15,204 nucleotides of DNA, taken from positions 1 to 15,204 of the IMG/VR virus record IMGVR_UViG_2913177423_000006; one strand, 5' to 3'. Shown piece by piece: positions 1-15,204 of the stretch. The notes below the pieces were generated by a model. The model ran no database searches. It saw only the letters and a list, made by a program, of their open reading frames with translations, and was not told the DNA's origin. The stretch's first letter is position 1. Every line of letters begins with the position of its first letter. The DNA is from a virus. Taxonomy: Duplodnaviria > Heunggongvirae > Uroviricota > Caudoviricetes. The translations under genes were made by a program, and so were the position numbers.

Positions 1-555
1 ATGCTTATTGGCTATGTACGCGTATCAACAAATGACCAGAACACCGATCTACAACGTAATGCGTTGAACTGTGTAGGATGTGAACTGATTTTTGAAGACA
101 AGATAAGCGGTACGAAGTCCGAAAGGCCCGGACTGAAAAAACTGCTCAGGACATTATCGGCAGGTGACACACTGGTTGTCTGGAAGCTGGATCGGCTGGG
201 GCGTAGTATGCGGCATCTGGTCATTCTAGTTGAGGAGTTGCGCGAACGTGGCGTTAATTTTCGCAGCCTGACGGATGCTATTGATACCAGCACACCGATG
301 GGGCGTTTTTTCTTTCATGTGATGGGTGCCTTGGCTGAAATGGAACGAGAACTGATTGTTGAACGAACAAAAGCTGGACTGGAAGCTGCTCGCGCGCAGG
401 GACGAATTGGTGGACGTCGTCCCAAACTTACACCAGAACAATGGGCGCAGGCCGGGCGATTAATTGCATCAGGCGTTCCTCGCCAAAAGGTGGCGATCAT
501 CTATGATGTTGGTATATCGACACTGTATAAGAAGTTTCCGGTTGGAGATAAATGA
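1..555 (+). CDS. Serine-recombinase DNA invertase (Gin/Pin/Cin/Hin family), complete 184 aa
   Basis: Starts exactly at window position 1 with MLIGYVRVSTNDQNTDLQ (catalytic Ser in VRVST), conserved WKLDRLGRS and GRFFFHVMGALAEMERE resolvase-domain motifs, and a C-terminal HTH (GGRRPKLT...STLYKK). Near-colinear with Gin/Pin-type invertases as I recall them. Confidence 0.9.
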   Translation: MLIGYVRVSTNDQNTDLQRNALNCVGCELIFEDKISGTKSERPGLKKLLRTLSAGDTLVVWKLDRLGRSMRHLVILVEELRERGVNFRSLTDAIDTSTPMGRFFFHVMGALAEMERELIVERTKAGLEAARAQGRIGGRRPKLTPEQWAQAGRLIASGVPRQKVAIIYDVGISTLYKKFPVGDK

Positions 556-592
556 AACCGTAGCACGTCGTATGCAAGAACGTGCTACGGTT
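556..592. repeat. Perfect 13-bp inverted repeat (aaccgtagcacgt / acgtgctacggtt, 11-nt spacer) directly after the invertase stop codon
   Basis: Read directly: arms at 556-568 and 580-592 are exact reverse complements. No U-tract follows, so it is not a canonical intrinsic terminator; could be an RNA stem-loop or a protein-binding palindrome. Confidence 0.4.
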
Positions 593-775: not shown

Positions 776-3586
776 TTATTTTTTTAGAGATTGCATTCGT
801 TCATTGAATATGTCCAATGTGTCTTGAAATTCAACAAAGCCTCTATCCTTTATAAGGATTTTAATTAAGTTAGGAAAATCACTTTCTACACCAGCTGTAA
901 TGAAATCTAACTCGCCTAATTTATTCGGGATGTTTTCAGAAACAAATTTGTTAATAACCTCAAGAAATTGATCAGGCATGGCACATCCGCTTGCGACTAA
1001 ATGCAAACATTCCATAATATCGCTTACTGTTGCCAGTGGTAGGTTTAAAATATTACTGTTAATAAACTTGTCTATAATGTCAACGACCTCAGGAGAGCCA
1101 ATCCTTTTGATGTTCAATAATAAACTCTTAGTGATGGATCTTTTCCACTTATCATCAAATAATTGTATTTTTGTTAACGCTAATGTTAATAGTTCAGTGT
1201 TTTTGTATTCGTAATTATGATTCTCTGATAATATGTAAATGTTTCGTAAGATATTGGAGTTAATTACATGCTGGTCATAACCATTTAACTCTCCTGTATT
1301 GATTTTTATAAGTATTACATCCAGGATTTTTAACATATCATCATGGGATTTTTGATACAAAAACTCATTCACAGCTAGAAGATTATGTATGTTTTCATAA
1401 ATATTTATGTTATTAGTTCTGCCTTCTAACAAAGGAAGCAAACCATTTATTATTTTCTTTAACTGGTTTGAACTCCACGGAACACATCCTAATATAATCA
1501 ATAAATTATTGGTCCATCGATCTATTGAAGTGGTATGAATAAAATTTTTATTTTTCAACCTAATCAGGTTGCATATGTTTTCGAGAGAGTTGAGTAAATA
1601 TTTCTTAATATGGTGAACTTCTCTTTTGTCAAGTTTGCTGGTGCTGATTATTATTTTGTCTTTTATTACCTTACTTAAAAATTTTTTGAGTTTTTCTGTC
1701 TCGCAGTATTTTATTAACATAAATAGATCGATTCTATTAACATAGAATATCTCTTCGCATAGATAGTGTTCGAGGCTACTAAGAATATTAAATTCGAAAA
1801 ATTGTTTAACCTCTTTATATTCTTCAATTAAAATTTCGTTGCCTAAAATGAAATACACATAAGGGTACAGTTTCGCTCTTGTTTTAAATTCATCATTGGA
1901 AAATGCTATTCCACCACTCTTTCTTATTTGTGAGTACCCTAAATTCTTCTTCGATTCAACGTCAAATCGATAGTAAGCTTTGTATATTTCATTAAATTCA
2001 AGCATCTTTACTAATTCTTGTAGCTCACTTTGCACCCCCCGTGGAAAATCAATTATTTTACTTTTAAACTCAAATGGAGTATGGCTTTCCATTATTGATT
2101 TACAATCTTCATCAATGTCCTTACCGTTACAGTGTAAATCCGACTTCAACATCCTGTAAGCATAATCAAAATTAGACATGTGAATGGTGGCGAGAATATA
2201 GTTTCTCTCATTAAGATGAAGCTTTACTTTCGAAATAAGAATATCGAGAAGTTTGCCATATTCCTTGTTAATAAGAAGTATTTCAGCATTATCCTTTGAA
2301 TAAGCGAAAGAAATCTTATTGTATAGCTCAGACTCTAATTCTGAAGAACTAATCACCTCATACAGTTTCGAGTCATAACTAACTGTATTTATAAATGCCT
2401 TTTCCAAAATAGATGAGAATGTCTTTTTTAAGTGAGTATTTTTACTCAAAATGTCATTAAGGTATATGCTATTTATTTTCCTGCTATACTCGTCATAATC
2501 AGTCGTCAAAATATTATTGTGGGAGGTTAGTTTAACCCCAGACTTATCATAATCAATGGTACTATTAGTTAATTTTTTACTGATCTGCTCAGGGAGCAAT
2601 ACTTTGTATTGTGTTAATGCTTTTAGTTTGCTATCAACATATTTATTTATTTTTTTTGTTACAATACATTGAATATCATTCTTCAATTTATTTTTATCAA
2701 AATCAGACATTCTCAGGTCATCTTCTATTTTTTTTACCTTTGACTCAGTATAGATCAGGGTCCTCTTTATAAACTCATCTTGGTTTTTAACAAGCTTGAA
2801 ATCACTGAAAAATTTTGAATAAAGATCATGATAGCTAATGTCAGTATTCATCGGTGTCAACAAGGATATCCCATGATTTCTTAAGTAAAGAGCCTGGGCT
2901 GCATCATGATTTTTCTGGAGCAAATATTTTCTTGGTGTTGCTTTTGATATAGTTGTAACCCATGAAACAATCTGTTTTAAATCATAATCACTATAAGAGT
3001 ATCCTAAAAACACAACAGTGTTTGTTGAGAATATTCCTTTTATAAAATTTTCGATAAGTGGAAAATTTTGGCTGTACTGTAAGTAATCATCCTCTTTAAA
3101 AACAAAATTATTCTGTCGAAAATCCCCATGCATCTTTATAATTTTCTTGTCCAAATGACTTTGTGCCAGGTCCACGTCAGAACTAACTAAATCATAAGCC
3201 AATCCTATGTCTTGTGCAGTTTTTTCAAGCAAACTATCCCAGTTGGTTGTAATTATATAGTGGGGGTTTAATTCAAATAGCATCTTATGAAAAAGACTTG
3301 GTTTCAAATCTCTAATTATTGATTTGACTTTTTTAACATAAGAGTTTTGTCCGTATTGAAGAAAGTAAAGTTGGGCTATTTTTAAATAATCATTTTCTTC
3401 AGACAATCCTAAGTCGTCTTTTAGCTCATTTATTAACTCCCTCCAGGTTGGTATTTTTATTAATTCCGTTTCGCTGAATTTAGAAAAACCAGCACCAATA
3501 AAAAGAACTAACTTATTATCTTGACTGGCATTCAATATTTCGTTCAAGTCATATTCAGAAAAAGAAAGTGGATTTAAATTTATCAT
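776..3586 (-). CDS. SIR2-domain protein, 936 aa: N-terminal SIR2-type NAD+-hydrolase domain plus ~650-aa helical C-terminal region; candidate single-gene antiphage defence protein (DSR1/DSR2-like)
   Basis: Long uninterrupted ORF. N-terminus carries SIR2-type motifs: glycine-rich LVLFIGAGFS (res 26-35), IITTNWDSLLE (Asn115), IIKMHGDF (His153), VVFLGYSYSDYDL. Asn-His spacing of 38 residues. The gene is visibly far more AT-rich than its neighbours (by eye, roughly 25-30% GC against about 50%). No partner gene (TIR, HerA, Argonaute) nearby. Confidence 0.8.
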   Translation of the reverse strand: MINLNPLSFSEYDLNEILNASQDNKLVLFIGAGFSKFSETELIKIPTWRELINELKDDLGLSEENDYLKIAQLYFLQYGQNSYVKKVKSIIRDLKPSLFHKMLFELNPHYIITTNWDSLLEKTAQDIGLAYDLVSSDVDLAQSHLDKKIIKMHGDFRQNNFVFKEDDYLQYSQNFPLIENFIKGIFSTNTVVFLGYSYSDYDLKQIVSWVTTISKATPRKYLLQKNHDAAQALYLRNHGISLLTPMNTDISYHDLYSKFFSDFKLVKNQDEFIKRTLIYTESKVKKIEDDLRMSDFDKNKLKNDIQCIVTKKINKYVDSKLKALTQYKVLLPEQISKKLTNSTIDYDKSGVKLTSHNNILTTDYDEYSRKINSIYLNDILSKNTHLKKTFSSILEKAFINTVSYDSKLYEVISSSELESELYNKISFAYSKDNAEILLINKEYGKLLDILISKVKLHLNERNYILATIHMSNFDYAYRMLKSDLHCNGKDIDEDCKSIMESHTPFEFKSKIIDFPRGVQSELQELVKMLEFNEIYKAYYRFDVESKKNLGYSQIRKSGGIAFSNDEFKTRAKLYPYVYFILGNEILIEEYKEVKQFFEFNILSSLEHYLCEEIFYVNRIDLFMLIKYCETEKLKKFLSKVIKDKIIISTSKLDKREVHHIKKYLLNSLENICNLIRLKNKNFIHTTSIDRWTNNLLIILGCVPWSSNQLKKIINGLLPLLEGRTNNINIYENIHNLLAVNEFLYQKSHDDMLKILDVILIKINTGELNGYDQHVINSNILRNIYILSENHNYEYKNTELLTLALTKIQLFDDKWKRSITKSLLLNIKRIGSPEVVDIIDKFINSNILNLPLATVSDIMECLHLVASGCAMPDQFLEVINKFVSENIPNKLGELDFITAGVESDFPNLIKILIKDRGFVEFQDTLDIFNERMQSLKK

Positions 3587-4026
3587 TTTATAACTCTATG
3601 CATGTCTTAAAATTCATTGCTTCCATCAATATTAGCATAATTAAGTATTTCAAATCATAACGATGCTTAATTTATCATTATAATCCATTAACTTGTTCCA
3701 AGTACACCGTCTGCTAGTAATTTCTCCATTAACTGACTTATAAAGTGGGGGACTTCCGTCTCTCTCTCATAACAGACATTCACTACAGTTATGGCAGAAA
3801 GGTATGCAAGCCGGGTGTGGGAAAGTATGAAAGAAAAGAAGACTGCTGCGCCGTTTGTCGTCACATTTATCTTCATTGGCTATGCAAGTCGTAATACAAG
3901 GTGGGACAAAACTGAGACACATAAGGCCTCGCAATGGCTTGCAAGGCTTTACATGTTTTGATGTGGCGGGACGTGTGAGCGCAGTGTTGATGGGGTAATG
4001 CTTTGAATTAGAATCGGATTCTTATA

Positions 4027-4072: not shown

Positions 4073-4237
4073 TTTCAACGTCTTTTCCCGTCTATTAAAA
4101 TCCAACAAACCCGCATATACTCTAGCTTTGAGCGCCCCAGATAGTGTTTTAACGTCTATCAATATCTCCTAAAATCCACGTCTTTTGGGGGGATATTCGG
4201 GGGTATATGCTGTGTGGGCTACTGGAGATACCCCCAA

Positions 4238-5428
4238 ATGAAACTAAATGCCCGTCAGGTCGATACGGCCAAACCGAAAGAAAAACCCTATAAACTGGCC
4301 GATGGTGGTGGGCTTTATCTGCTTGTTAATCCCAATGGTTCCCGGTACTGGCGTTTAAAGTACCGGGTAGCCGGAAAAGAAAAGCTGTTGGCGCTGGGGG
4401 TATATCCCGATGTAACCCTGGCTGATGCCAGGGCGAAACGAGATGAGGCCAAAAGGGGTATGGCTGGGGGGATCGACCCGAACGAAGCGAAGCGGGAAGA
4501 AAAATTGAACCGCGAAGCGCAAATCAAAAACACCTTCGAAGAAATCGCCAGAGAGTGGCATACAGAACGGCAGAAGAAATGGTCTGAGGGGTACGCCTCG
4601 GACATTCTGGAAGCATTCAGTAAAGACATATTCCCTTGGATTGGAAAACGCCCCATCACGGAAATAAAGCCCCTTGATTTGCTGAATACGCTTAAACGCA
4701 TCGAGAATAGGGGAGCGACTGAAAAGGCCCGTAAGGTTCGCCAGTGGTGCGGGGAGGTCTGGAAGTATGCGATCGTTACCGCCCGCGCAGAATATAACCC
4801 CGCCCCTGATCTATCTGTGGCTATGGAAGGACACGAAGGGGAGCACTTCCCCCATCTGGAAGCCGAAGAGTTACCCGAATTTTTCCAGACGCTGGCGACG
4901 GCAAAAAGTAACGTTCAGGTTATTTTGGGGCTGCGTCTGCTTATTCTTGTGGGGTTACGTCCGGTTGAATTACGCGCGGCCCCGTGGTCAGAGATTGATT
5001 TTGATAATGCCTTGTGGGAGATCCCCAAAGAGCGAATGAAGAAAAGACGTCCGCACGTTGTCCCGCTTTCTCGCCAGGCTATGGTTATTCTCGGGCAATT
5101 AAAAGAGTTGTCGGGCCGCAATCCTTTCATTTTTCCGGGCCGGAACGACCCGCGAAAGCCAATGAGTGAAGGAGCAATTAATCAGCTAATAAAGCGACTC
5201 GGGTATAAGGGCAAAGCTTGCGGGCATGGTTTCCGACATACCATGAGCACAATTTTGTATGAGAAAGGGTATAACACCGAATGGATCGAAACCCAGCTTG
5301 CACATGTTGATAAAAATACCATCCGTGGCACATATAATCATGCCCGCTATCTGGATGGACGCCGGGAAATGCTTCAATGGTATGCCGACTATATGGAATC
5401 GCTGGCGAGTGGCAGGGTAAAAGATTAG
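4238..5428 (+). CDS. int: Tyrosine integrase, P4/CP4-57 IntA type (396 aa)
   Basis: N-terminus MKLNARQVDTAKPKEKPYKLADGGGLYLLVNPNGSRYWRLKYR is the classic P4-type integrase arm-binding start; C-terminal catalytic region has HGFRHT and a conserved Tyr in RGTYNHARY. GGAGA Shine-Dalgarno 10 nt upstream of the ATG at 4238; the ORF-track start at 4214 is a GTG extension. Sits immediately downstream of the tRNA fragment. Confidence 0.9.
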   Translation: MKLNARQVDTAKPKEKPYKLADGGGLYLLVNPNGSRYWRLKYRVAGKEKLLALGVYPDVTLADARAKRDEAKRGMAGGIDPNEAKREEKLNREAQIKNTFEEIAREWHTERQKKWSEGYASDILEAFSKDIFPWIGKRPITEIKPLDLLNTLKRIENRGATEKARKVRQWCGEVWKYAIVTARAEYNPAPDLSVAMEGHEGEHFPHLEAEELPEFFQTLATAKSNVQVILGLRLLILVGLRPVELRAAPWSEIDFDNALWEIPKERMKKRRPHVVPLSRQAMVILGQLKELSGRNPFIFPGRNDPRKPMSEGAINQLIKRLGYKGKACGHGFRHTMSTILYEKGYNTEWIETQLAHVDKNTIRGTYNHARYLDGRREMLQWYADYMESLASGRVKD

Positions 5429-5505: not shown

Positions 5506-5998
5506 ATCATTTTCAATGAATTATGATTTTGGAAATTTTATAAAAAACACCAAGATTACTAATCTATTGATTAATATGAAATATTTCTTTTTTTGATTAT
5601 TAATTGTGCTCTTGATTGTTGTTTTTATGGTGTTAATTTATAAAAATCTTATTTATAGGAATTAACATTATATAGTTGGCACTTTTTGCTAAAATCTGTT
5701 TTTATTGTGTTTTATTTTTATTTCATTTTTGTTGTTGTTTGTTTGATTTTTAGTGTCTTTATATCTGGCTAATTGATTTCACTCAAACCATAAATCCTTT
5801 CAGAGGCTTCTAGAGTCTTCCTGAGGCTTAAATTGACTTAACTAAAAGTCAAGCCCCACATCCCACATACATCTTTTTGACATGCACTTATGGCGTGAAT
5901 AACAATGACTTCATCCAATCTACAGGCATCCTATAAAGTCAATGTCTGTATATAGAAAGATATTACATAACGTTTGAATGTTAATAGCGGGTGTGAAT

Positions 5999-6217
5999 AT
6001 GAGAAATGATGCAATGCAGCTTTTAAACCAAGGAAAAAGATTGATCCGCCTGCCTGAAGTTATGATGCTTACGGGGCGGTGTCGCGCCAGTATTTATAAA
6101 GATATCAATGCAAATGTCTTTCCAAAGCCGATTAAAACCGGCCCGCGTTCTGTCGCATGGGTTGAGGGTGAGATCAGCGACTGGATCGACAACAAAATCA
6201 AAGAGCGCAAAGTGTAA
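5999..6217 (+). CDS. alpA: AlpA/Vis-family phage transcriptional regulator (excision activator-like), ~72 aa
   Basis: RLIRLPEVMMLTGRCRASIYKDINANVFPKPIKTGPRSVAWVEGEISDWI matches the AlpA-family pattern (RLP.V...TG..R.TIY.....FP.P...G.R.V.W...E...W), in the usual position after a P4-type int. Start chosen at the ATG at 5999 (MRNDAMQ...); the ORF-track start at 5978 lacks an SD. Confidence 0.75.
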   Translation: MRNDAMQLLNQGKRLIRLPEVMMLTGRCRASIYKDINANVFPKPIKTGPRSVAWVEGEISDWIDNKIKERKV

Positions 6218-6416: not shown

Positions 6417-7289
6417 ATGAACATTACTGATATTATCAGCCATCGCGTATATCGTGATGCGGATCTTGCTGTCATTAATAACACGGCATTTATTCAGCCT
6501 TATGACGGTTGTCACCGTGGTTTGTATGAAATGCGCGTTATTGAACTTTATCGCCTGAATAAAATGATGCACCTTACCCACGAATATAAATCTATTTCCG
6601 GGGAAAGCGTAGGCATTCCGGCGACTAAAGAGGAACTGTTTACACTGGTTAATAAAGGGCATGAACTTTGCCAGTCTGAACGGGAAAAGCTGGCGGCACT
6701 TGAAGCAGAATTGCAGCGTCTGCCAAGCCCGGCTGTAATTCCTGCGCCGCAGACGATTAAAGAAGCACAGCAGGCCCGTAAATCACTAGAAGATGAAAGA
6801 TTCAGACTGCATCACGCAGCAATTAAAAATCAAGTCAAGGCACAGCAGGAAGAGTTATCCATCAGACAAAACATTCTGGCATTGCTCGCGCCGGTTATTG
6901 ATGTGTTGTTGGCCGTGGAAGATGTGGAACTGCTCGATCTGCGCCGTTCCCTGCCTAAGTCATCCCTCGATGCTAAGGCATTCAAAAAGGCGATTTCTGA
7001 AATTGAGTGTGCTGACCTTGCCTGGCAGAAAATGGATAAACTGGAGATTGCCCTTAACAAGGTGGTGAACAACTGCACATATCGCCCGGAAGGAAGCATT
7101 AATCCCCGTTTTGTTAACCCTCTTAATGAAGATAAGCGGGAACGCGCCGAAATATCACGCGATTATTACAGCTCTGAAATGGCCTTTATTCATACGGTGA
7201 TGAGTGCAGATGAATATTTAAATTATATGTTGCCGATCCGTCACCAGCAGCGCGCGCAACGACTCACATTAGAAAGAAATATCAACTAA
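6417..7289 (+). CDS. Hypothetical 290-aa protein with a central coiled-coil-like region; possible scaffold-like partner of the downstream capsid-family gene
   Basis: Clean ORF whose stop lies 10 bp before the next gene, which has an AAGGAAG SD. Middle segment (ELCQSEREKLAALEAELQRL ... QVKAQQEELSIRQNILALL) is heptad-like. No family recognised by eye; functional call is inference from adjacency and size only. Confidence 0.6.
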   Translation: MNITDIISHRVYRDADLAVINNTAFIQPYDGCHRGLYEMRVIELYRLNKMMHLTHEYKSISGESVGIPATKEELFTLVNKGHELCQSEREKLAALEAELQRLPSPAVIPAPQTIKEAQQARKSLEDERFRLHHAAIKNQVKAQQEELSIRQNILALLAPVIDVLLAVEDVELLDLRRSLPKSSLDAKAFKKAISEIECADLAWQKMDKLEIALNKVVNNCTYRPEGSINPRFVNPLNEDKRERAEISRDYYSSEMAFIHTVMSADEYLNYMLPIRHQQRAQRLTLERNIN

Positions 7290-7298
7290 GGAAGAATT

Positions 7299-8306
7299 AT
7301 GTCTTATGTAACACCAGATTATTTAACGCAGTATCACGAAAACCTGATTAAGTCTTTTAATATTAAATATAAAAACGAAGATACGGGGTATTTCACCATA
7401 TCACAGCCGGAAAAAGCATCTCCGGATGCATGGGGATGTTCCACGCTTGATGTTAAAGGCTCGTCCTGGCTGATTGATAATATTTCATTACTGGACATTA
7501 CCGGTGCGGATGGCACGACGATCACCATCGGTGATGGTTCCCTTTATACAGGCCGTGCAAAGGAAGGTCGCTTTCATAAGAAACTAAAAACCAACGGAAC
7601 ACCTTTTTTATTATCAGAAACGGATTCCTGCGCCTCATTGACTTATGAAGAAATGGCGGTAATGGCAAACGCGAAAAATTTCAGTAATGAAATGATCATT
7701 TTTTTCAAGAAGGCCGTGGTGCGGGATATGCTCCGTATTGGATTTAACGGCAAGATGATTGCCGAAAATACCAACCCGGAACAATATAAAAACGGCGAAG
7801 ATATCAATATTGGCTGGCACTCGCTGGCAAAAACATTCAATAACGGTTCACAAATTATTTCTGATGCTTTCGCACTGGGGAAAGGGGGTGATTTTGCCGA
7901 TGTTCACGATCTGGCTGATTGCCTCATCACGTCAAAAATCCCCGAAGGTCAGCGCGAAGATCCGGGCCTTGTGGTGATGGTTGGCGCGCAGCTTGCCGCC
8001 CGCGAACGCCTGAAACTGTTCAACATGGCCGATCAACCACTGACGCTGACGGCGGGGGATATGTTGACAAGCAGTGTCGCCGGTCGTTTTGCCTTTATCC
8101 CGCCGTTTATGCCGGGTAAGCGCCTGGCTGTTACGACGCTGAAAAATTTGCAGATCCTGACGCTGAAACACAGCCAACACTACCGCGCGGAGGATATCCC
8201 GCAACGAGGTGTTTATGAGCATGGCTATTTACGTGAAGAAGGTTACGCGCTGGGGGATGGCTATCTTTACGCGGCCAGCGATGAGAACGCCGTGACGCTG
8301 GTTTAA
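7299..8306 (+). CDS. P2 GpN-like major capsid-family protein homologue (335 aa)
   Basis: Colinear motif matches to my recollection of P2 GpN: RIGFNG vs AGFNG; NIGWHSL vs AVGWLQK; LGKGGDFADVHDLAD vs VGKGGDYASLDALVMD; EDPGLVVMVGAQLAA vs EDPDLVVIVGRQLLA; TTLKNLQI vs ITKLENLSI. AAGGAAG SD 5 nt upstream. Recalled-sequence comparison, not a search, so moderate confidence. Confidence 0.55.
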   Translation: MSYVTPDYLTQYHENLIKSFNIKYKNEDTGYFTISQPEKASPDAWGCSTLDVKGSSWLIDNISLLDITGADGTTITIGDGSLYTGRAKEGRFHKKLKTNGTPFLLSETDSCASLTYEEMAVMANAKNFSNEMIIFFKKAVVRDMLRIGFNGKMIAENTNPEQYKNGEDINIGWHSLAKTFNNGSQIISDAFALGKGGDFADVHDLADCLITSKIPEGQREDPGLVVMVGAQLAARERLKLFNMADQPLTLTAGDMLTSSVAGRFAFIPPFMPGKRLAVTTLKNLQILTLKHSQHYRAEDIPQRGVYEHGYLREEGYALGDGYLYAASDENAVTLV

Positions 8307-8477
8307 AACCTGCTGCAGTACAGCCAGCTTTGACAGTGTTGACCAGATAAAAGAAAACCCCCTCACCGGAACGAACAAGAAACGATGAGAGGGTTTATCA
8401 GGAAGATGATTCTACGCGATGAATTATACCGGGATACAACCGATGCTTACCAGCATAACCACACGACGTAAAAGGGG

Positions 8478-8663
8478 TTATTCCTTTATCGTGTCCAGTT
8501 TCTTACGGCGTTGGCGGCGCTTTATCTCACCCTTTGCCGCAGTTACTAAGAAACCGGCTGTACTTTCTCCAGTTTCCTTTAACTGTTCTATATCCTCCAT
8601 AACCTCATGGGGGATTCTGACGGTGGTCATTTGCGATTTTGCATTCTTCGCACCTGTTGCCAT
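8478..8663 (-). CDS. Ribbon-helix-helix (CopG/Arc-like) DNA-binding protein, 61 aa
   Basis: Minus-strand translation MATGAKNAKSQMTTVRIPHEVMEDIEQLKETGESTAGFLVTAAKGEIKRRQRRKKLDTIKE has the RHH beta-strand/helix pattern (TTVRIP.E....IE.L). GGAGA SD 6 nt upstream of the ATG at 8663. Divergent from the small-gene operon. Confidence 0.5.
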   Translation of the reverse strand: MATGAKNAKSQMTTVRIPHEVMEDIEQLKETGESTAGFLVTAAKGEIKRRQRRKKLDTIKE

Positions 8664-8787
8664 TACTGTTCTCCACTCGAATAGGTGTATTTCAGTATAC
8701 GCAACTAAAAAACAGAAAAAAAGACTTGAAGTGTATTTCACCATACGTGTAGGATTGATTTGCAAGGTGACATACACCTGTAAAGTA

Positions 8788-8820
8788 AAGCCCGGCAGTG
8801 TGGGGACACTAACCGGGCTT
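8788..8820 (+). promoter_or_regulatory. Strong nested hairpin/palindrome in the divergent control region upstream of the small-gene operon
   Basis: Outer stem aagcccgg (8788-8795) / ccgggctt (8813-8820), inner stem agtgt/acact with gggg loop. No U-tract follows, so it is more likely an operator or structured leader than a terminator. Confidence 0.35.
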
Positions 8821-8849
8821 CTGACCAACACGTTAACAGGACTAACGCT

Positions 8850-9053
8850 ATGGCTAAGCCGAAGTGTAACCAAACTCACCCTAAAAATCGCGTATTTCTC
8901 TTTCTTGCGGTATCAAGGGCTGACATGCAGGACAAACCACACCGCGAACAAATCACCGCGTACAGCGAACAGGAAGCCCGTTCCATGCTGGCCGGTCGCT
9001 TTATCCTCTGCTTTGCTGGCTGTCTGCCGGTTCAGGAGGCGCGCCATGTTTAA
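8850..9053 (+). CDS. Possible small leader ORF (67 aa, or 42 aa from ATG at 8925); stop overlaps next gene's start (ATGTTTAA)
   Basis: Open frame whose TAA (9051-9053) overlaps the ATG at 9046. No recognisable domain; C-terminal hydrophobic stretch RFILCFAGCLPV. May be non-coding leader. Confidence 0.3.
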   Translation: MAKPKCNQTHPKNRVFLFLAVSRADMQDKPHREQITAYSEQEARSMLAGRFILCFAGCLPVQEARHV

Positions 9054-9294
9054 CCCACTGGACAACCGTAAAGCGGCGGCGCTTAACCCGTTCCACGATG
9101 ACTGTTACGATCCGCCAGCCTTTATTAAACCGGGTTCAAAAGTAGTGGTTGAAATTGATTCCCGTGAAATGGAAGTCGCTATTCTAGCCGCTTATGACTA
9201 CGGACTGGACGCGCTGAACGACGATGGCCGGGAAGAGCTTAACCGCTTAATTGCTGACCTGAAAGACCAGATAACGGAGGCGCGGTATGCATAA
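9046..9294 (+). CDS. Hypothetical small protein (82 aa), first gene of the translationally coupled operon
   Basis: AGGAGG SD 6 nt upstream of the ATG at 9046. Stop overlaps the next start (ATGCATAA at 9287-9294). The ORF-track start at 8419 is a stop-free upstream extension. Confidence 0.65.
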   Translation: MFNPLDNRKAAALNPFHDDCYDPPAFIKPGSKVVVEIDSREMEVAILAAYDYGLDALNDDGREELNRLIADLKDQITEARYA

Positions 9295-9712
9295 TCTGCT
9301 TAATTCACCGTTGCCAGTGTCTATGGATCTCTTTCAGGCTGGCGAGATGTGCGGGCATTTTGTCGCGCGGTTAACGGATGAAAGTTGTGTTGACGAGACT
9401 GAACGCGTCGCACTTTGCGGACGTCTGGCTTTTGCCCTGCGTTCTCTTTCATCTCTTTGTGATACAGACTATCCATCGCATATCCAGGCGCAATTAACCG
9501 CGACTGCTATTCCTGCTCCCTGCGTACCTGATGAGTGGATCGACGCGACGATCATGACGGGCTATTGCACCGCCTTAAATGATGCGCTGCTTAGTCGCTC
9601 CCTTCGTATGGACGTTGAAACACAATTACGCTGGCTTTTGCATGACATGATTAATTTACTTGTCAGATATCTGAAACAGCCTTGTATTAAGGCGGGAGTA
9701 GATCATGTCTGA
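9287..9712 (+). CDS. Hypothetical Cys-rich protein (141 aa)
   Basis: Start overlaps the previous stop and its own stop overlaps the next start (ATGTCTGA at 9705-9712). No family recognised. Confidence 0.6.
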   Translation: MHNLLNSPLPVSMDLFQAGEMCGHFVARLTDESCVDETERVALCGRLAFALRSLSSLCDTDYPSHIQAQLTATAIPAPCVPDEWIDATIMTGYCTALNDALLSRSLRMDVETQLRWLLHDMINLLVRYLKQPCIKAGVDHV

Positions 9713-10112
9713 AATTATGCTCACACCGTTTCACGTTGACCGCCATTTTTACGATCTGGTTTACGGTGCTTCATTTTTTGCGGATGCATTACCTGCAATG
9801 AATGATATCAAGCAGCAGCGGCTTTATTGTCGATTATTGCAATTAAATCTGGTTGTTTTATTTGAAAAACGGTCGCGGGATATTCCCCCAATTCAGTCGA
9901 GTAAAATAAAAATCGCTGATGAGGTTATATTTCTTAATGTCGATAATATTTATCATGCGCTTTCCCTGACTGCCGGGCTGATAAGTCAGGATATCAGTAA
10001 GGGGATTGAAAAAGAACTGGCTGAATATATCAGGGATATTATTAGTATTATTTTTAATGAAATGCGAATGCAGATGGTTGATTATGATCCCTATGAAATG
10101 TGGGACGACTAA
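9705..10112 (+). CDS. Hypothetical protein (135 aa), acidic C-terminus
   Basis: Translationally coupled to the upstream gene; no family recognised. Confidence 0.6.
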   Translation: MSEIMLTPFHVDRHFYDLVYGASFFADALPAMNDIKQQRLYCRLLQLNLVVLFEKRSRDIPPIQSSKIKIADEVIFLNVDNIYHALSLTAGLISQDISKGIEKELAEYIRDIISIIFNEMRMQMVDYDPYEMWDD

Positions 10113-10199: not shown

Positions 10200-10469
10200 A
10201 TGTCTGATTTGAATACCATTGCTGTTAATAGTGCTGAAAAATATCTTAGCCTTGAGTGCTTCCATAAACTCAACCGCGCAAGGAATGTTTCATTCCAGAT
10301 GCATTTACAGATCCGTCAGTGTGAGATAAACGGCCTGCCACTTTTATGGATTCCAGATATTTTCAGCTATATCAGCGAAGACATATCCGCCGTTCTGGAA
10401 GAAGCCAAAGTACTTGGCCTTTGCGATAAGTTCACAGGCGAAGCCCGGATCGGTCAGGTCAGTCTTTAA
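10200..10469 (+). CDS. Hypothetical protein (89 aa) upstream of the primase
   Basis: ORF with a GGAAAA region before the ATG; followed by a T-run and GC-rich palindrome gcgccgc-ccgct-gcggcgc (10483-10501) before the primase start. Confidence 0.5.
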   Translation: MSDLNTIAVNSAEKYLSLECFHKLNRARNVSFQMHLQIRQCEINGLPLLWIPDIFSYISEDISAVLEEAKVLGLCDKFTGEARIGQVSL

Positions 10470-10532
10470 TTTTTTGTATTCCGCGCCGCCCGCTGCGGCG
10501 CATTGTCTTACCCATTAATAAAGGTCATACCG

Positions 10533-13265
10533 ATGCAAGGTAAAAAAGTTTCACAGACAGCAGGACGCGCAGCGGGCCAGTGGGAAAATATTCTTGAACA
10601 CCTGGGGATTACTGTTCCTGCGGGTGGTCTTCATGGCCCCTGCCCGATCTGCGGCGGTAAAGATCGTTTTCGCTTTGATAATAAAAAAGGGCGTGGAACC
10701 TGGTTCTGCAACCAGTGCGGCCACGGTGACGGGCTGGATCTGGTCAAACTGGCGCTTTCGCTGGACACCGGGCCAGCCGCTGATCGAGTTGCTGAATTAC
10801 TTCCGGCCCTTCCTCCGCCTGCGGTCATGCAGCCTGCCAGAAAAGAAGCCAGTGACGAAGGTCGCCCACATGACTACTGGCAACGCCTCTTTGCCCGTAC
10901 TCAGCCGGGGGAAAGCCCTTACCTTACGGCGCGGGGGCTGACAGGTTTTGAACTGCCGCTGACCGTTCAGGAGATGAAAACCGCTGGCGGTGTTTTTCCG
11001 GCTGGTTCGCTTTTATTACCGATCACGGACACCGAAGGACGGATGACCGGTGCACAGCTTATCGGCCCGGACAAGGTAAAAGGCTTATGTGCTGGCACCA
11101 GGAAAAAAGGGCGTTTTATCTCTGTCGGGCCGTTCCCGGTGAAAACGCCCGCGCGGATCATTATCTCGGAAGGCTTTGCCACTGCGTTAAGCGCATCCCT
11201 GCTTTCAGAGGGCTGGAGTATTGCGGCGCTGGATAAAGGCAACCTGAAAGACGTTGCGGAGCAAATCCGCCAGAAATGGCCGGACGTGCAGATCGTTATT
11301 GCCGGTGATAATGACTTTTCTGACGGTAAACCCAATCAGGGGAAAGAGTCTGCGATCAAAGCTGCACTGGCCGTTAAGGGATGGATGACCATTCCTCCCG
11401 GACGGATCAAAGTTGACTGGGATGATTACCGCCGTGAATTTGGCCTCCAGCGCGCCCGTGACGCATTCGCGGAAGAACTGCTTAACCCGGCAGACACCGA
11501 AACGCGTTTACCGCATGGTTTCCGCCTGACGAAGGATTATCTTTGGTTTGATCGCCCGCTCAGTGACGGTAGCGAAAGCGGCCAGACTCGCCAGGTGAAG
11601 ATATGTAGCCCGCTCAAAGTGACGGCCATCACCAGCGACGGCGAAGGCGGTAAATTCGGGCGTCTGCTTGAGTGGGAAGACTCCAGCGGATTACGGCATG
11701 AATGGGCGATGCCAATGACAGTGCTTGCCGGAAGCGGTCAGGAGCTGCGGGAGGTTCTGCTTGATAACGGAATGCACTTTATCAGCGTGAACGGCGCGGC
11801 GCGTAGCTATCTGATGGAATACATTTCTAACTGTCGCCCGGTTCGCCGCGTCACCTGCGTTGAAAAAACAGGCTGGTTTAGCGGTGCATATGTTCTCCAG
11901 GATGAGGTGATCGGCAGCGATGCCGGATCGGTGATCCTTCAGTCTGCTATGTCGTCTAAAAATGACTTCCGGGTGAGCGGAACGGCGGCGGAATGGGCGC
12001 AACACGTCGGGCGCTATTGCGCCGGTAATTCCCGCCTGGTGTTCTGCGTCAGTCTGGCGCTGGCCGCGCCGTTGCTGAATCTTATCGGCGTGGGCGGCGG
12101 CGGTTATCACCTTAAGGGCGAATCCACGGACGGCAAGACAACCACAATGAAGGTGGCGGCGTCAGTCTGCGGCGGGCCTGATTTCTGGAAAACGTGGCGG
12201 GCAACCGGAAACGCGCTGGAAGGTATTGCGCTACGCCGTAATGATGCCGCCCTGATGCTGGATGAAATCAGCGAAGTTGACGGCAGAGAGGCCAGCCGGA
12301 TCGCCTATATGCTGGGGAACGGGCAGGGCAAAGCAAGGGGGCGCGTTGATGGCAGCGTCCGCGATCCGGTGACCTGGACATTGCTTTACCTGTCCACCGG
12401 GGAAATCTCTATTGCGGAACATGCCGCCGAAGCCGGAGAAAAGCGAACCGGCGCGGGTGTCGGTGTGCGTATGGTGCAAATACTCAGCGATACCGGAAAA
12501 CATGGCGCTTTCGAAAATCTCCACGGCATGGAAGGCGGTAAAGCGTTTGCGGAATACCTTGAACAGTCCTGTAAACAGTATCACGGTGCGCCGTTCCGCG
12601 AATGGTTGCGCTGGCTGGCGGCAAACCTGACGGAAACTGCGAACCGGGCGCGGGCAATGAAAAAAGAGTATGAACGGACATTATTACCCGAAGATTCCGG
12701 CAAGCAGGTCGGGCGCATTGTGGATCGCTTTGCGCTGTTAGCCGTTGCGGGGGAACTGGCAAGCGAAGCGGGGATCACCGGCTGGCTACCCGGTGAAGCG
12801 TATAACGCTGCAAGAAGCTGTCTGGCGGCATGGCTTAACGATCGCGGACATGCGGCCAACCAGGAAGAAGCCGACGCGCTGGAGAAGGTGCGGCGCTTTA
12901 TTACGGCGAATCAGTACACACGCTTTGCTGACTGGTATGACGAGAAAAACCGCCCGTCAAATATGGTTGGTTTTCGCCGGGTGGAGAAAGGCGGGAACGG
13001 TATCGGCATGAGCAAGAAGGAGAACAGCGGCGATACTGTTAAAGACGGGGACGCCACTAAAGAGCCGGAAACCACATTTTATATCCTGCCCAGCGGATGG
13101 AAGGAGATTTGCGGGACGTCGGACAGCGTTAAAACGGCGAGACTATGCGACGAGGCTGGATGGCTTGTAAAGGATGAAGATCGCCAGCGCCTACAACGTA
13201 CAGTAAGACTACCGGAAATTGGCTTAAAGAAAGTGTATGTGTTCAGCGGCGAAGTGATCGGATAA
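10533..13265 (+). CDS. P4 alpha-type DNA primase/helicase (zinc-binding domain, Toprim primase, P-loop NTPase)
   Basis: Zinc ribbon CPICGGKDRFRFDNKKGRGTWFCNQCGHGDGLD; Toprim motifs IIISEGFATA and VIAGDNDF; Walker A GESTDGKTT and Walker B LMLDEI. Start set at ATG 10533 (MQGKK...); the ORF-track start at 10503 is a TTG. Confidence 0.9.
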   Translation: MQGKKVSQTAGRAAGQWENILEHLGITVPAGGLHGPCPICGGKDRFRFDNKKGRGTWFCNQCGHGDGLDLVKLALSLDTGPAADRVAELLPALPPPAVMQPARKEASDEGRPHDYWQRLFARTQPGESPYLTARGLTGFELPLTVQEMKTAGGVFPAGSLLLPITDTEGRMTGAQLIGPDKVKGLCAGTRKKGRFISVGPFPVKTPARIIISEGFATALSASLLSEGWSIAALDKGNLKDVAEQIRQKWPDVQIVIAGDNDFSDGKPNQGKESAIKAALAVKGWMTIPPGRIKVDWDDYRREFGLQRARDAFAEELLNPADTETRLPHGFRLTKDYLWFDRPLSDGSESGQTRQVKICSPLKVTAITSDGEGGKFGRLLEWEDSSGLRHEWAMPMTVLAGSGQELREVLLDNGMHFISVNGAARSYLMEYISNCRPVRRVTCVEKTGWFSGAYVLQDEVIGSDAGSVILQSAMSSKNDFRVSGTAAEWAQHVGRYCAGNSRLVFCVSLALAAPLLNLIGVGGGGYHLKGESTDGKTTTMKVAASVCGGPDFWKTWRATGNALEGIALRRNDAALMLDEISEVDGREASRIAYMLGNGQGKARGRVDGSVRDPVTWTLLYLSTGEISIAEHAAEAGEKRTGAGVGVRMVQILSDTGKHGAFENLHGMEGGKAFAEYLEQSCKQYHGAPFREWLRWLAANLTETANRARAMKKEYERTLLPEDSGKQVGRIVDRFALLAVAGELASEAGITGWLPGEAYNAARSCLAAWLNDRGHAANQEEADALEKVRRFITANQYTRFADWYDEKNRPSNMVGFRRVEKGGNGIGMSKKENSGDTVKDGDATKEPETTFYILPSGWKEICGTSDSVKTARLCDEAGWLVKDEDRQRLQRTVRLPEIGLKKVYVFSGEVIG

Positions 13266-13362
13266 GACCTGCTGACACCGCTATAACTAACGGTGTTGGC
13301 CAGCTTCCGGTCCTGGAAACATAGCCAGCCAGGAAGAAGTGATCGCACGTATCATATTTTTT

Positions 13363-13575
13363 AGTGGGAACAGTGGGAACATAGGGAACAGACTTGATTT
13401 ATAAAAGTTTTATTTGTTCCCAATTACTGTTCCCATATGGTAACAGGTGGTAATGTATTTTAAATCATATGGTTATGTTGATATGCAAAGCGTTGTTCCC
13501 AGTTGTAAAAGAGAGATGGGAACAGGAAAAAGGTATAAATATCAACACTGTTACCATTGTTCCCACTGTTTCCAC
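13363..13575. repeat. Iteron-like array: about 10 copies of octamer TGGGAACA / TGTTCCCA in both orientations; candidate ori/crr-type primase-binding region or integrase arm-type sites
   Basis: Read directly: direct copies at 13366, 13375, 13384 (9-bp period); inverted copies tgttccca at 13415, 13428, 13494; tgggaaca at 13517; tgttacca / tgttccca / tgtttcca at 13549, 13558, 13567 (9-bp period). Confidence 0.7.
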
Positions 13576-13649
13576 CATTTTTGACAATAACAATGTTTAA
13601 TTTCGGGGAAAATGCTTTTCCCTGGCTGGCTAACATCAAAGGTGAAGAA

Positions 13650-14198
13650 ATGAGCATCAAGAAACGTCCTGATGGAAAATGGCTGGTAGATATCCGCCCC
13701 AATGGGCGGAACGGGAAACGCGTTAGGCGTGTTTTTATGCTTAAGCGTGAGGCTGAAAGTTTCATAAGATATACAAAGTGGCGAGCAATGCAGTCTGAAC
13801 CCACAAGAACAATCAAACCAGCATTTGAATATTATACCCTTTATGAAGCGTGTGAAATCTGGTGGCGTTTAGTGGGTCATACAAGAATTAACGCAGAAAC
13901 TGAAAAGCGTCAGCTTGAAAAGACTATCAGGCAAATGGGGAATCCTTATGTTATGGAACTTAAATATACACAATTAATTCAATTTGTAATGTTACGATTA
14001 TATTCATGCAATAAATATGTTTCTATTCGGCGTGATCTTTACAGGCTGTCAGGTATGTTTCGTGATCTGATAAAAATAGGTGAATATAATTCTAACCCCA
14101 TGAAAGGGGTTGGTTCATTAATGAACGAATGTAACCGACGTTTAGCCATACACGTTAGCAATCCTTGCTGGGTTCAATGGTGGAGAGGGGTAAAATAA
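13650..14198 (+). pseudogene. Tyrosine-integrase N-terminal fragment (arm-binding plus core-binding region, 182 aa), lacking the catalytic domain; probable integrase remnant or stand-alone DNA-binding protein
   Basis: MSIKKRPDGKWLVDIRPNGRNGKRVRRVFMLKREAESFIRYTKW is the typical P2-type integrase arm-binding N-terminus. The ORF stops after ~180 aa with no R..HxxR..Y catalytic region. AGGTG SD before the ATG at 13650. Confidence 0.5.
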
Positions 14199-14217: not shown

Positions 14218-14475
14218 TCAGTTTTGAAGCAATTCTTTTATCATTGTTTTTTGTTCCGGCGTCATCATGTCAATCATTGTTTTTACTGCTTTCTCCCCAG
14301 TCAGCGCGCTGGGGCTTAGCGTATGGGAGAACGTCATATTCATAACGAAGGTATGCCCACATTCAACATTATTACAGGCACAATACATATCAGACAGGTG
14401 TGGATGCTTGCGTACTGTCTTTTTTGTTGTTGAATTACTTCCACACTCAGGACAAACAATTTTATGGCTGCGCAT
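14218..14475 (-). CDS. Ogr/Delta-family zinc-finger transcriptional activator (85 aa)
   Basis: MRSHKIVCPECGSNS...YCACNNVECGHTF gives Cys spacing C-x2-C-x20-C-x-C-x4-C with the NV.C motif of P2 Ogr / P4 Delta. GGTGA SD 5 nt upstream of the ATG at 14475; the ORF-track start at 14529 is probably an upstream extension. Confidence 0.7.
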   Translation of the reverse strand: MRSHKIVCPECGSNSTTKKTVRKHPHLSDMYCACNNVECGHTFVMNMTFSHTLSPSALTGEKAVKTMIDMMTPEQKTMIKELLQN

Positions 14476-14958: not shown

Positions 14959-15204
14959 ATGCAACACGTAAACTATACCGATGCTCGACAGCATTTAGCT
15001 GACCTGATGCAGCAGGCTAATGATGATCGTGCCCCAATCCTGGTTACGCGTAAGGGTGCTAAAAGCGTAGTAATGATCGATGCGGAAGAGTTCGCATCGA
15101 TTCAGGAAACGTTACACCTGTTCAGTAACCCGGCGAACGCCGCACACATTGAAGCCAGCCTTGCATCGCTCGAACGCGGCGATTATGAGGAACTGGACAT
15201 TTAA
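14959..15204 (+). CDS. yefM: YefM/Phd-family type II antitoxin (81 aa)
   Basis: MQHVNYTDARQHLADLMQQANDDRAPILVTRKGAKSVVMIDAEEFASIQETLHLFSNPANAAHIEASL aligns with E. coli YefM as I recall it. Stop codon is the last triplet of the window, so the cognate toxin would lie beyond the window end. Confidence 0.85.
   Translation: MQHVNYTDARQHLADLMQQANDDRAPILVTRKGAKSVVMIDAEEFASIQETLHLFSNPANAAHIEASLASLERGDYEELDI

Follow-up and report, generated by a model that had tools for sequence, protein, structure and literature searches.

The control region described here occupies positions 8478–8870 of a 15,204-nt stretch of DNA (the window; IMG/VR record IMGVR_UViG_2913177423_000006) that, judged from its gene content, is a P4-like satellite island from an Escherichia coli chromosome. 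It contains the minus-strand gene for a 61-residue ribbon-helix-helix (RHH) protein and the start of a divergent plus-strand early operon, which encodes an Icd-like protein, epsilon and a primase. The sequence features of this region indicate that it is probably a two-layer lock on the early operon, composed of a protein repressor and an antisense RNA related to SymR. The features, listed with reference to open reading frames (ORFs) where needed, are as follows.

8355–8396, minus strand: hairpin followed by UUUUCUUUU (inverted repeat), likely the intrinsic terminator of the RHH gene
8478–8663, minus strand: 61-residue RHH protein (YlcI/YnfO family)
8684–8696, plus strand: putative operator O1, GGTGTATTTCAGT, overlapping the −10 and start region of the RHH promoter
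8694–8699, minus strand: candidate −10 of the RHH promoter, TATACT, with a T-rich tract upstream
8726–8731 and 8750–8755, plus strand: early-operon promoter, with −35 TTGAAG, an 18-nt spacer and −10 TAGGAT; inferred start at about 8762
8730–8742, plus strand: putative operator O2, AGTGTATTTCACC, in the early-promoter spacer directly after the −35
8766–8778, minus strand: putative operator O3, GGTGTATGTCACC on the minus strand and thus inverted, at about +4 to +17 of the early transcript
8780–8855, minus strand: predicted SymR-like cis-antisense RNA of about 72–76 nt, from strand asymmetry, covariation and alignment with SymR
8850–9053, plus strand: Icd-like gene, the first gene of the early operon (NCBIfam NF033153, 64.9 bits)
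8863–8868, minus strand: candidate −10 of the antisense promoter, TACACT, at nt 14–19 of the Icd-like ORF
8886–8891, minus strand: candidate −35 of the antisense promoter, GCGATT, weak

The divergent RHH gene is as a sequence-only reading of this DNA had described it. Its 61-codon ORF, with a translation that begins MATGAKNAKSQMTTVRIPHEV, faces away from the plus-strand Icd-like/epsilon/primase operon, and a Shine–Dalgarno sequence (GGAG, 8671–8674) lies 7 nt upstream. In an E. coli element that is 99.8% identical, the RefSeq label of the protein is ‘YlcI/YnfO family protein’. The window protein matches the NCBIfam model of this family (NF041551) at 64.7 bits (E = 5.5e-18; curated cutoff 30) and also PHROG 949, labelled ‘unknown function’. 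There is no Pfam match, and a literature search on YlcI/YnfO function returned nothing relevant. Homologues number 134 across the Enterobacterales. An AlphaFold2 model made with 25 homologues (predicted local distance difference test score, 80) contains an extended segment at residues 12–18 and helices at residues 19–31 and 35–60. The turn between the helices (G32-E-S-T35) is conserved, which completes the β-strand, two helices and G-x-S/T turn of the RHH fold. The top Foldseek matches in the PDB are all RHH proteins: Arc (probability 0.94), CopG, AmrZ, CdbA, AtaR and ParD. A phmmer search of PDB sequences gave a chance match only. By its conserved sequence pattern and predicted structure, the protein is of the RHH fold class. 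Downstream of the gene, the terminator hairpin sits between the convergent capsid and RHH genes, and a further long hairpin (8404–8473, minus strand) separates the RHH stop codon from this terminator; the minus strand of 8330–8480 folds with a z-score of −5.3.

The related loci gathered for comparison comprise 62 from Enterobacterales other than E. coli, retrieved by protein similarity, and, from E. coli itself, four retrieved by DNA similarity and three additional variants. The 186-bp intergenic region of the window contains three copies of a 13-bp GGTG-N5-CACC element (consensus GGTGTATTTCACC), each with at most two mismatches. An automatic search found at least three copies of one 10-mer in 59 of 65 loci, at offsets of about +20, +65 and +90–105 from the RHH ATG. 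At the early promoter, O2 fills the spacer right after the −35 and O3 lies just past the −10; the pattern TTGnnn-17/18-TAnnnT is present at this promoter in 62 of 64 loci. A TATnnT hexamer stands at the fixed place of the RHH −10 in 60 of 64 distinct intergenic regions, and the RHH promoter has no clear −35. A simple consensus scan for promoters and terminators, with rules that proved too strict, returned nothing in the intergenic region and two terminator-like matches inside the Icd-like gene. The layout of the sites is that expected of a repressor that would shut the early operon and limit its own synthesis.

Across the loci, the GGTG...CACC flanks and the promoter hexamers are constant and the five central bases of the operators vary. 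This variation is in step with RHH residues 11–15, which belong to the predicted DNA-reading β-strand. Identical β-strands pair with identical cores and different strands with different cores, giving at least 15 specificity types, among them the following.

β-strand MTTVRIP, operator core GTGTATTTCA
β-strand KLEARVP, operator core GTGGCTGACA
β-strand QLNARFP, operator core GTGCGATTCA
β-strand LQVSVRLP, operator core GTGGTGTTCA
β-strand QIVSRVP, operator core GTGGCATTCA
β-strand KMSARVP, operator core TGGGTGCCAG
β-strand SVTARIA, operator core GTGTAAGACA
β-strand YKGIRFP, operator core TGTTTAAACA
β-strand IAARIP, operator core GTGTTCAACAC

Some loci match the window at 95% identity downstream yet have a different RHH/operator pair, and in these the resemblance to the window starts again precisely at position 8788. 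This break, together with the swapped pair, indicates that the N-terminal half of the RHH protein and its operators travel as one cassette. In loci of other types, type-specific sites are confined to the intergenic region. A potential fourth operator within the capsid gene (7385–7397, one mismatch) was rejected, since the same sequence is found in loci of other RHH types. With three positioned sites per locus that co-vary with the β-strand over about 65 loci, the RHH protein is a strong candidate for the protein repressor proposed by the sequence-only reading, and is probably the repressor of the early promoter.

The same reading had noted a nested palindrome at 8788–8820, which is real. Its outer arms (8788–8795 and 8813–8820) are complementary at all eight positions and enclose an inner 5-bp helix (AGTGT/ACACT). 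Compared with shuffled sequences, its 101-nt context has a z-score of −2.3 on the plus strand and −4.6 on the minus strand. Sixty-two distinct related loci retain the hairpin, with compensatory changes; this conservation and the fold scores place the palindrome far beyond chance. Its proposed role as an RHH-binding site is not borne out, because the hairpin stays constant across specificity types and the type-matched sites are O1–O3. Searches of the rest of the window for a trans partner of the hairpin loop or of the CA-rich linker gave chance-level matches only, such as 13293–13303 with one mismatch.

An alignment of the 62 distinct copies, from the hairpin to the Icd-like start codon, includes 19 base pairs of two hairpins and shows on which strand the structure is maintained. 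Of the resulting pair cells, 1048 are Watson–Crick, 114 are A·C on the plus strand and hence G·U on the minus strand, only 2 are G·U on the plus strand, and 14 are of other kinds. Standard pairs account for 98.0% of cells on the minus strand versus 89.1% on the plus strand. Compensatory double changes on the minus strand are seen for 16 of 23 pairs; none of 500 shuffles reaches the observed values and no slid register comes close. The mean energy of the hairpin is −22.0 kcal/mol on the minus strand versus −16.5 kcal/mol on the plus strand, and the minus-strand form is the more stable in 60 of 62 loci. The 10 nt past the hairpin contain on average 5.0 T on the minus strand versus 1.4 on the plus strand, with at least five T in 43 of 62 loci on the minus strand and in none of 62 on the plus strand. 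Neither a DNA-level palindrome nor a plus-strand RNA would produce this asymmetry, which identifies the element as a structured minus-strand RNA. The palindrome is probably the terminator stem–loop of an antisense RNA.

The predicted RNA begins with 5′-AGCCAU, which is complementary to the AUG and codon 2 of the Icd-like gene, and continues with an anti-Shine–Dalgarno hairpin (8830–8849), a linker, the terminator hairpin and then UUUACUUUAC. By homology with SymR, it would start at A 8855 and end near 8780–8784. The predicted antisense stretch folds at −35.4 kcal/mol (z = −5.1). In a 12.7-kb search, the Rfam SymR model (RF01809) matches five relatives over its full length, on the predicted strand and span, with scores of 35.9–39.1 bits (E = 1.5e-4 to 4e-4). 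Reciprocally, a covariance model built from satellite loci only (R1) finds K-12 symR at 36.2 bits (E of roughly 2e-7) and has no match in P4. The 5′ AGyCAU, the anti-Shine–Dalgarno hairpin, a UUGUGrUUAG segment and the terminator are common to K-12 symR and the satellite RNAs, and GUGUUGGCGCAC is identical between K-12 symR and some satellite loci. The fold has the two-part organization of SymR, with an outer helix bearing the anti-Shine–Dalgarno hairpin and then the terminator hairpin, supported by covariation on the strand of the RNA. The position also agrees: the RNA is encoded opposite the 5′ end of its target, over the AUG and codon 2, with the −10 in codons 5–7. The target differs, being an Icd-like gene with RHH-type repeats instead of the LexA-repressed, AbrB-fold toxin SymE with its LexA boxes. 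From this sequence and structure agreement, the satellite minus-strand RNA is related to the SymR antisense RNA.

The promoter proposed for this RNA is embedded in the coding sequence. In almost every locus, the minus strand of Icd-like ORF nucleotides 14–19 has the form TAnnCT. The TACACT of the window corresponds in ORF position to the −10 that mutation defined for symR, where two silent changes in symE codons 5–6 (CATTCT to CACTCC) abolish the promoter (Kawano et al. 2007, PMC1891008). Across 33 distinct sequences, the third positions of Icd-like codons 5–12 (8863–8885; CAG-nnT-ACC-CAA-ACT) are invariant and the encoded residues vary, the signature of an embedded promoter. The antisense −10 accounts for only part of this synonymous-site freeze, and a conserved ACCCAAAC just past the −10 is left over.

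Three sets of loci show how much the arrangement can vary. One E. coli variant (L071, 2425–2569) has a very divergent RHH protein and two perfect TGGTACGTACCA palindromes in a 145-bp spacer, and another (L070, 3553–3855) encodes a 100-residue RHH protein with a C-terminal extension and has four ATGTATATCAC sites. Both depart from the standard layout, yet both keep the SymR-like segment. Beside its main SymR-like RNA, L070 also contains a second, weak R1 match (3867–3968, minus strand; 24.8 bits), which may be a degenerate duplicate or a chance match. In Xenorhabdus innexi (L019, L034, L036 and L063) and X. mauleonii (L021, L038, L050 and L058), up to four elements are present per genome and their RHH/operator types are all different.

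Several observations weigh against a lock of the kind suggested above. Co-variation of protein and operators is partly expected from their physical linkage, but linkage does not explain why three separated sites change together with constant sequence between them. The Foldseek E-values are weak (0.1–5), as is usual for 60-residue proteins. The SymR scores of the relatives fall under the Rfam gathering threshold of 61 bits, and for the copy in the window the Rfam model reports no match even at E ≤ 10. This copy is the most divergent, and its assignment to SymR follows from its alignment with the relatives and from model R1. The U-tail past its minus-strand hairpin is interrupted. A promoter scan recovers TACACT, with a poor −35 in the window (3.4 bits), and a second candidate, TTGGTT-17-TAGCGT (8845–8873), scores higher there. 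Use of the latter would remove half of the anti-Shine–Dalgarno hairpin, for which covariation is seen on the minus strand, and does not fit the start of SymR; this candidate is retained as an alternative only. In a test of co-residence in 10 multi-copy genomes, no same-type pairs were found versus 2.15 expected (P of about 0.10), a result that is suggestive in that its direction fits heteroimmunity and is not significant.

In the mechanism that we infer for the two-layer lock, the RHH protein would be made from its own promoter (−10 TATACT) and bind as a dimer to the three 13-bp GGTG-N5-CACC sites. Dimers on O2 and O3 would bracket the early −10 and block transcription, and a dimer on O1 would cover the start of the RHH promoter, leading to autoregulation. 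The N5 core would be read by the variable β-strand residues, so that each satellite lineage would have its own repressor/operator specificity and thereby its own immunity type. In the second layer, a short RNA would be transcribed leftwards from the promoter in Icd-like codons 5–7, over the start codon and the Shine–Dalgarno sequence, and end at the 8788–8820 hairpin. Transcripts that escape the RHH protein would be met by this SymR-like RNA, whose pairing to the leader would block Icd-like translation, as SymR does for symE. A translational block of icd in P1 reportedly leads to polarity on downstream genes (work said to be that of Biere et al. in 1992). The block in the satellite would probably lower the genes downstream in the same manner and leave epsilon and the primase silent.

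Other readings of the hairpin would place it in a sense transcript. It lies 25 nt downstream of the inferred early start and folds on the plus strand as well (−20 kcal/mol; z = −2.3), and here this strand is rich in C and A and low in G, a composition that would be suited to Rho loading. It could then be an attenuator, terminator or stabilizer in the leader of the early mRNA, and maybe a target of the RHH protein, with no antisense RNA involved. The sequence-only reading had pointed to a structured leader; a terminator in the plus-strand leader is not supported by the alignment: the 62 loci contain no T-run after the hairpin on the plus strand, and the non-standard pairs are A·C on that strand (114 cells, against 2 G·U). 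The hairpin also remains unchanged as the RHH type changes and is akin to SymR, a minus-strand RNA, and we regard a plus-strand role as unlikely. The minus-strand structure might instead belong to the long 5′ leader of a second, upstream RHH promoter, an establishment-like promoter running antisense through the first early gene, with the hairpin as an attenuator or processing site. The structure is on the strand of the RHH gene, no more than 125 nt upstream, and read-through is plausible, since the window has an imperfect U-tail and certain loci, such as L004 and L009, have none. The conserved TATnnT −10 at O1, however, points to a promoter close to the RHH gene, SymR as the homologue exists as a separate RNA of 77 nt, and at least five T follow the hairpin in most loci (43/62), so that this reading too has a low probability.

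A further alternative concerns the protein rather than the RNA. Many RHH proteins are antitoxins, and AtaR, ParD, TacA and VapB are among the fold matches of the satellite protein; Icd-like proteins, for their part, are toxic cell-division inhibitors, according to the family name and to Silas et al. (bioRxiv). The RHH protein might accordingly act as an antitoxin-like partner, with autoregulation confined to its own gene or with direct neutralization of the Icd-like protein, and not as a repressor of the early operon. We consider this very improbable. The RHH and Icd-like genes diverge and do not share a transcript, the −10 that two of the three sites flank is that of the early promoter and not of the RHH promoter, and apart from its RHH fold and a basic tail the protein contains no other domain.

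The two-layer lock has partial counterparts in known systems, working, by analogy, like the combination of Mnt and sar in immunity I of P22 and like that of LexA and SymR on symE. SymE–SymR of K-12, a type I toxin–antitoxin system (PMC1891008), has a cis-antisense RNA of similar size (77 nt for SymR, about 75 nt here) with the same 5′ end, −10 position and fold plan. In both, a protein operator is directly beside the 3′ end of the RNA, for LexA in symE and for the RHH protein in the satellite. SymR acts on symE mainly by blocking translation (PMC1891008). The satellite differs in its target, which is Icd-like and not an AbrB-fold SymE, and in its repressor, an element-encoded RHH protein and not the host LexA; its target also heads a long replication/derepression operon, whereas symE is a single gene.

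Immunity I of P22 likewise has an RHH repressor, Mnt, divergent from the operon that it controls with its operator over the promoter, and a small antisense RNA, sar, that starts inside the operon (PMC2629481). Arc, of the same phage, is the best structural match of the satellite RHH protein, with 21% identity in the structural alignment and no sequence homology shown. The sar RNA reportedly arises from within the operon and covers the ribosome-binding site (a finding attributed to Liao et al. in 1987). P22 has two repressors (Mnt and Arc) and the satellite one; the genes under control are not the same, and sar, in so far as this was tested, has no relation to SymR. A likeness to the Stl/Rpr repressors of Staphylococcus aureus pathogenicity islands (SaPIs) and other Gram-positive phage-inducible chromosomal islands (PICIs) is that a satellite-encoded repressor with many specificity variants is divergent from the excision/replication operon. 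Stl proteins are larger and of the helix-turn-helix class, and derepression by a helper protein has been shown for them.

P4 is the textbook satellite, with an immunity based on RNA only. Its region between the early promoter and the first early ORF contains a C4-type CI RNA (74.9 bits, Rfam) and, to match it, isrK/c4-a1b1 target motifs. That ORF, which opens the P4 left operon, shares 38% identity with the Icd-like protein of the window, and this homology makes the two regions positional counterparts. The C4/CI models (RF01695 and RF03163) find nothing in the whole window at E ≤ 1 or in 8600–9100 at E ≤ 10; with P4 as positive control, Rfam searches gave 74.9, 60.8 and 44.1 bits, and a C4/CI-like leader RNA was therefore rejected for the window. 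The control logic thus differs from that of P4 at the analogous place, as had been suggested from the sequence, with putative RHH sites and a predicted minus-strand RNA in place of a C4 match. P4 (CI RNA-kil), P1/P7 (c4-icd-ant) and N15 (cA-icd-antA) share with the satellite an RNA block before an Icd-like ORF that heads an early or antirepressor operon. Their RNAs are processed from the sense transcript and act by short loop–target pairings, unlike the satellite RNA, which is a predicted true antisense RNA combined with a protein repressor. The P4 and N15 records, like PHROGs 1743 and 6928, give Icd-like proteins the label ‘transcriptional repressor’ (window 8850–9053; P4 8168–8584; N15 gene 32). 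This label looks like a leftover from the era when the cI/cA RNA genes were taken for proteins, and it can mislead annotation.

The leader and antisense segment is present in 376 of 5426 complete E. coli genomes, always beside Icd-like genes, and relatives of the locus also occur in many other Enterobacterales. In the loci that we inspected, the segment adjoins a divergent YlcI/YnfO gene inside islands with integrase, AlpA and primase genes. The P4-type C4 leader is commoner, with 1331 to 3003 genomes. The surveys of P4-like satellites that we consulted do not discuss the control region. Our literature searches found no work linking SymR to satellites and, on RHH proteins in P4-like satellites or Icd-like genes in satellites, nothing relevant beyond the papers cited here. 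For Gram-negative PICIs, the founding paper describes the global repressor as ‘unclear’ (PMC6092414). Each part of the lock, taken singly, is of a known kind; what appears to be undescribed is the way in which they are combined, together with the hypervariable repressor family and the reuse of a SymR cassette.

The locus offers a candidate repressor with readable operator rules, by which satellites could be sorted into immunity groups from sequence alone. The at least 15 RHH/operator types would constitute a natural set of orthogonal 60-residue repressor/operator pairs, and a family that has no label but YlcI/YnfO, or ‘unknown’ in PHROGs, gains a candidate function. The SymR antisense RNA is extended beyond symE, which would explain the synonymous-site freeze in the first codons of Icd-like genes. 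An Icd-like protein has been reported as the cell-death effector of a prophage-encoded system (bioRxiv 10.1101/2023.04.06.535777); with a protein of this kind encoded in the early operon, the lock may also gate an abortive-infection response. A broader proposal, which we put forward tentatively and would not yet expect to hold in full, is that YlcI/YnfO RHH proteins are the missing master or immunity repressors of many Gram-negative satellites, both P4-like and PICI-like, made heteroimmune by swaps of the β-strand/operator cassette, and that the SymR RNA, leader and embedded promoter form a portable safety catch on unrelated dangerous genes. If so, SymE–SymR would be one instance of a wider regulatory module, found with symE in the K-12 restriction island and with icd-like genes in satellites, and not a stand-alone toxin–antitoxin pair.

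The remainder of the window has the gene content of a P4-like satellite, with an integrase, an AlpA/Vis-like regulator, epsilon, an alpha-type primase and an Ogr/Delta activator.

776–3586, minus strand: SIR2-like cargo gene
4214–5428, plus strand: integrase
5978–6217, plus strand: AlpA/Vis-like regulator
6417–7289, plus strand: 290-residue protein, no family match
7299–8306, plus strand: P2-family major capsid protein (Pfam, 1.3e-54)
9046–9294, 9287–9712 and 9705–10112, plus strand: three ORFs without assigned product
10200–10469, plus strand: epsilon (‘Derepression’)
10503–13265, plus strand: alpha-type primase
13557–14198, plus strand: short integrase-like ORF
14218–14475, minus strand: Ogr/Delta-like gene

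Neither sid nor psu is recognized among the genes of the window, and a P2-family capsid gene is present instead. A major capsid gene of its own in a P4-like satellite is accompanied here by the gene for the 290-residue protein just upstream, which may be a scaffold; the pair (6417–8306) also occurs in loci L002, L003 and L005. Two RNA matches lie elsewhere. At 533–589 (plus strand), at the end of a phage-tail-like ORF, the window matches in part the 3′ hairpin of CssrB, a Shigella small RNA (RF02799; 36.7 bits versus a gathering score of 76). The Rfam ‘int-alpA RNA’ follows the integrase gene of a related satellite (L004, 782–848, plus strand; 57.6 bits, gathering score 35.8) and has no Rfam match in the window.

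The near-twin of the element is in E. coli strain JNEC-KY203, where it is 99.8% identical across the region and adjoins paoD. The two elements differ in their cargo. In the window this is a 936-residue protein (776–3586, minus strand) with a SIR2/Dsr2-like N-terminus that scores 67.7 bits, far under the Dsr2 cutoff, and in the twin (L001, 877–2766) a DUF262 protein takes its place. Such a difference between near-identical elements gives the impression of a defence slot whose content has been swapped. The island has at its right end (window 14959–15204; L001 15159–15664) a Phd/YefM–YoeB toxin–antitoxin pair that adjoins a truncated LysR gene and paoD.

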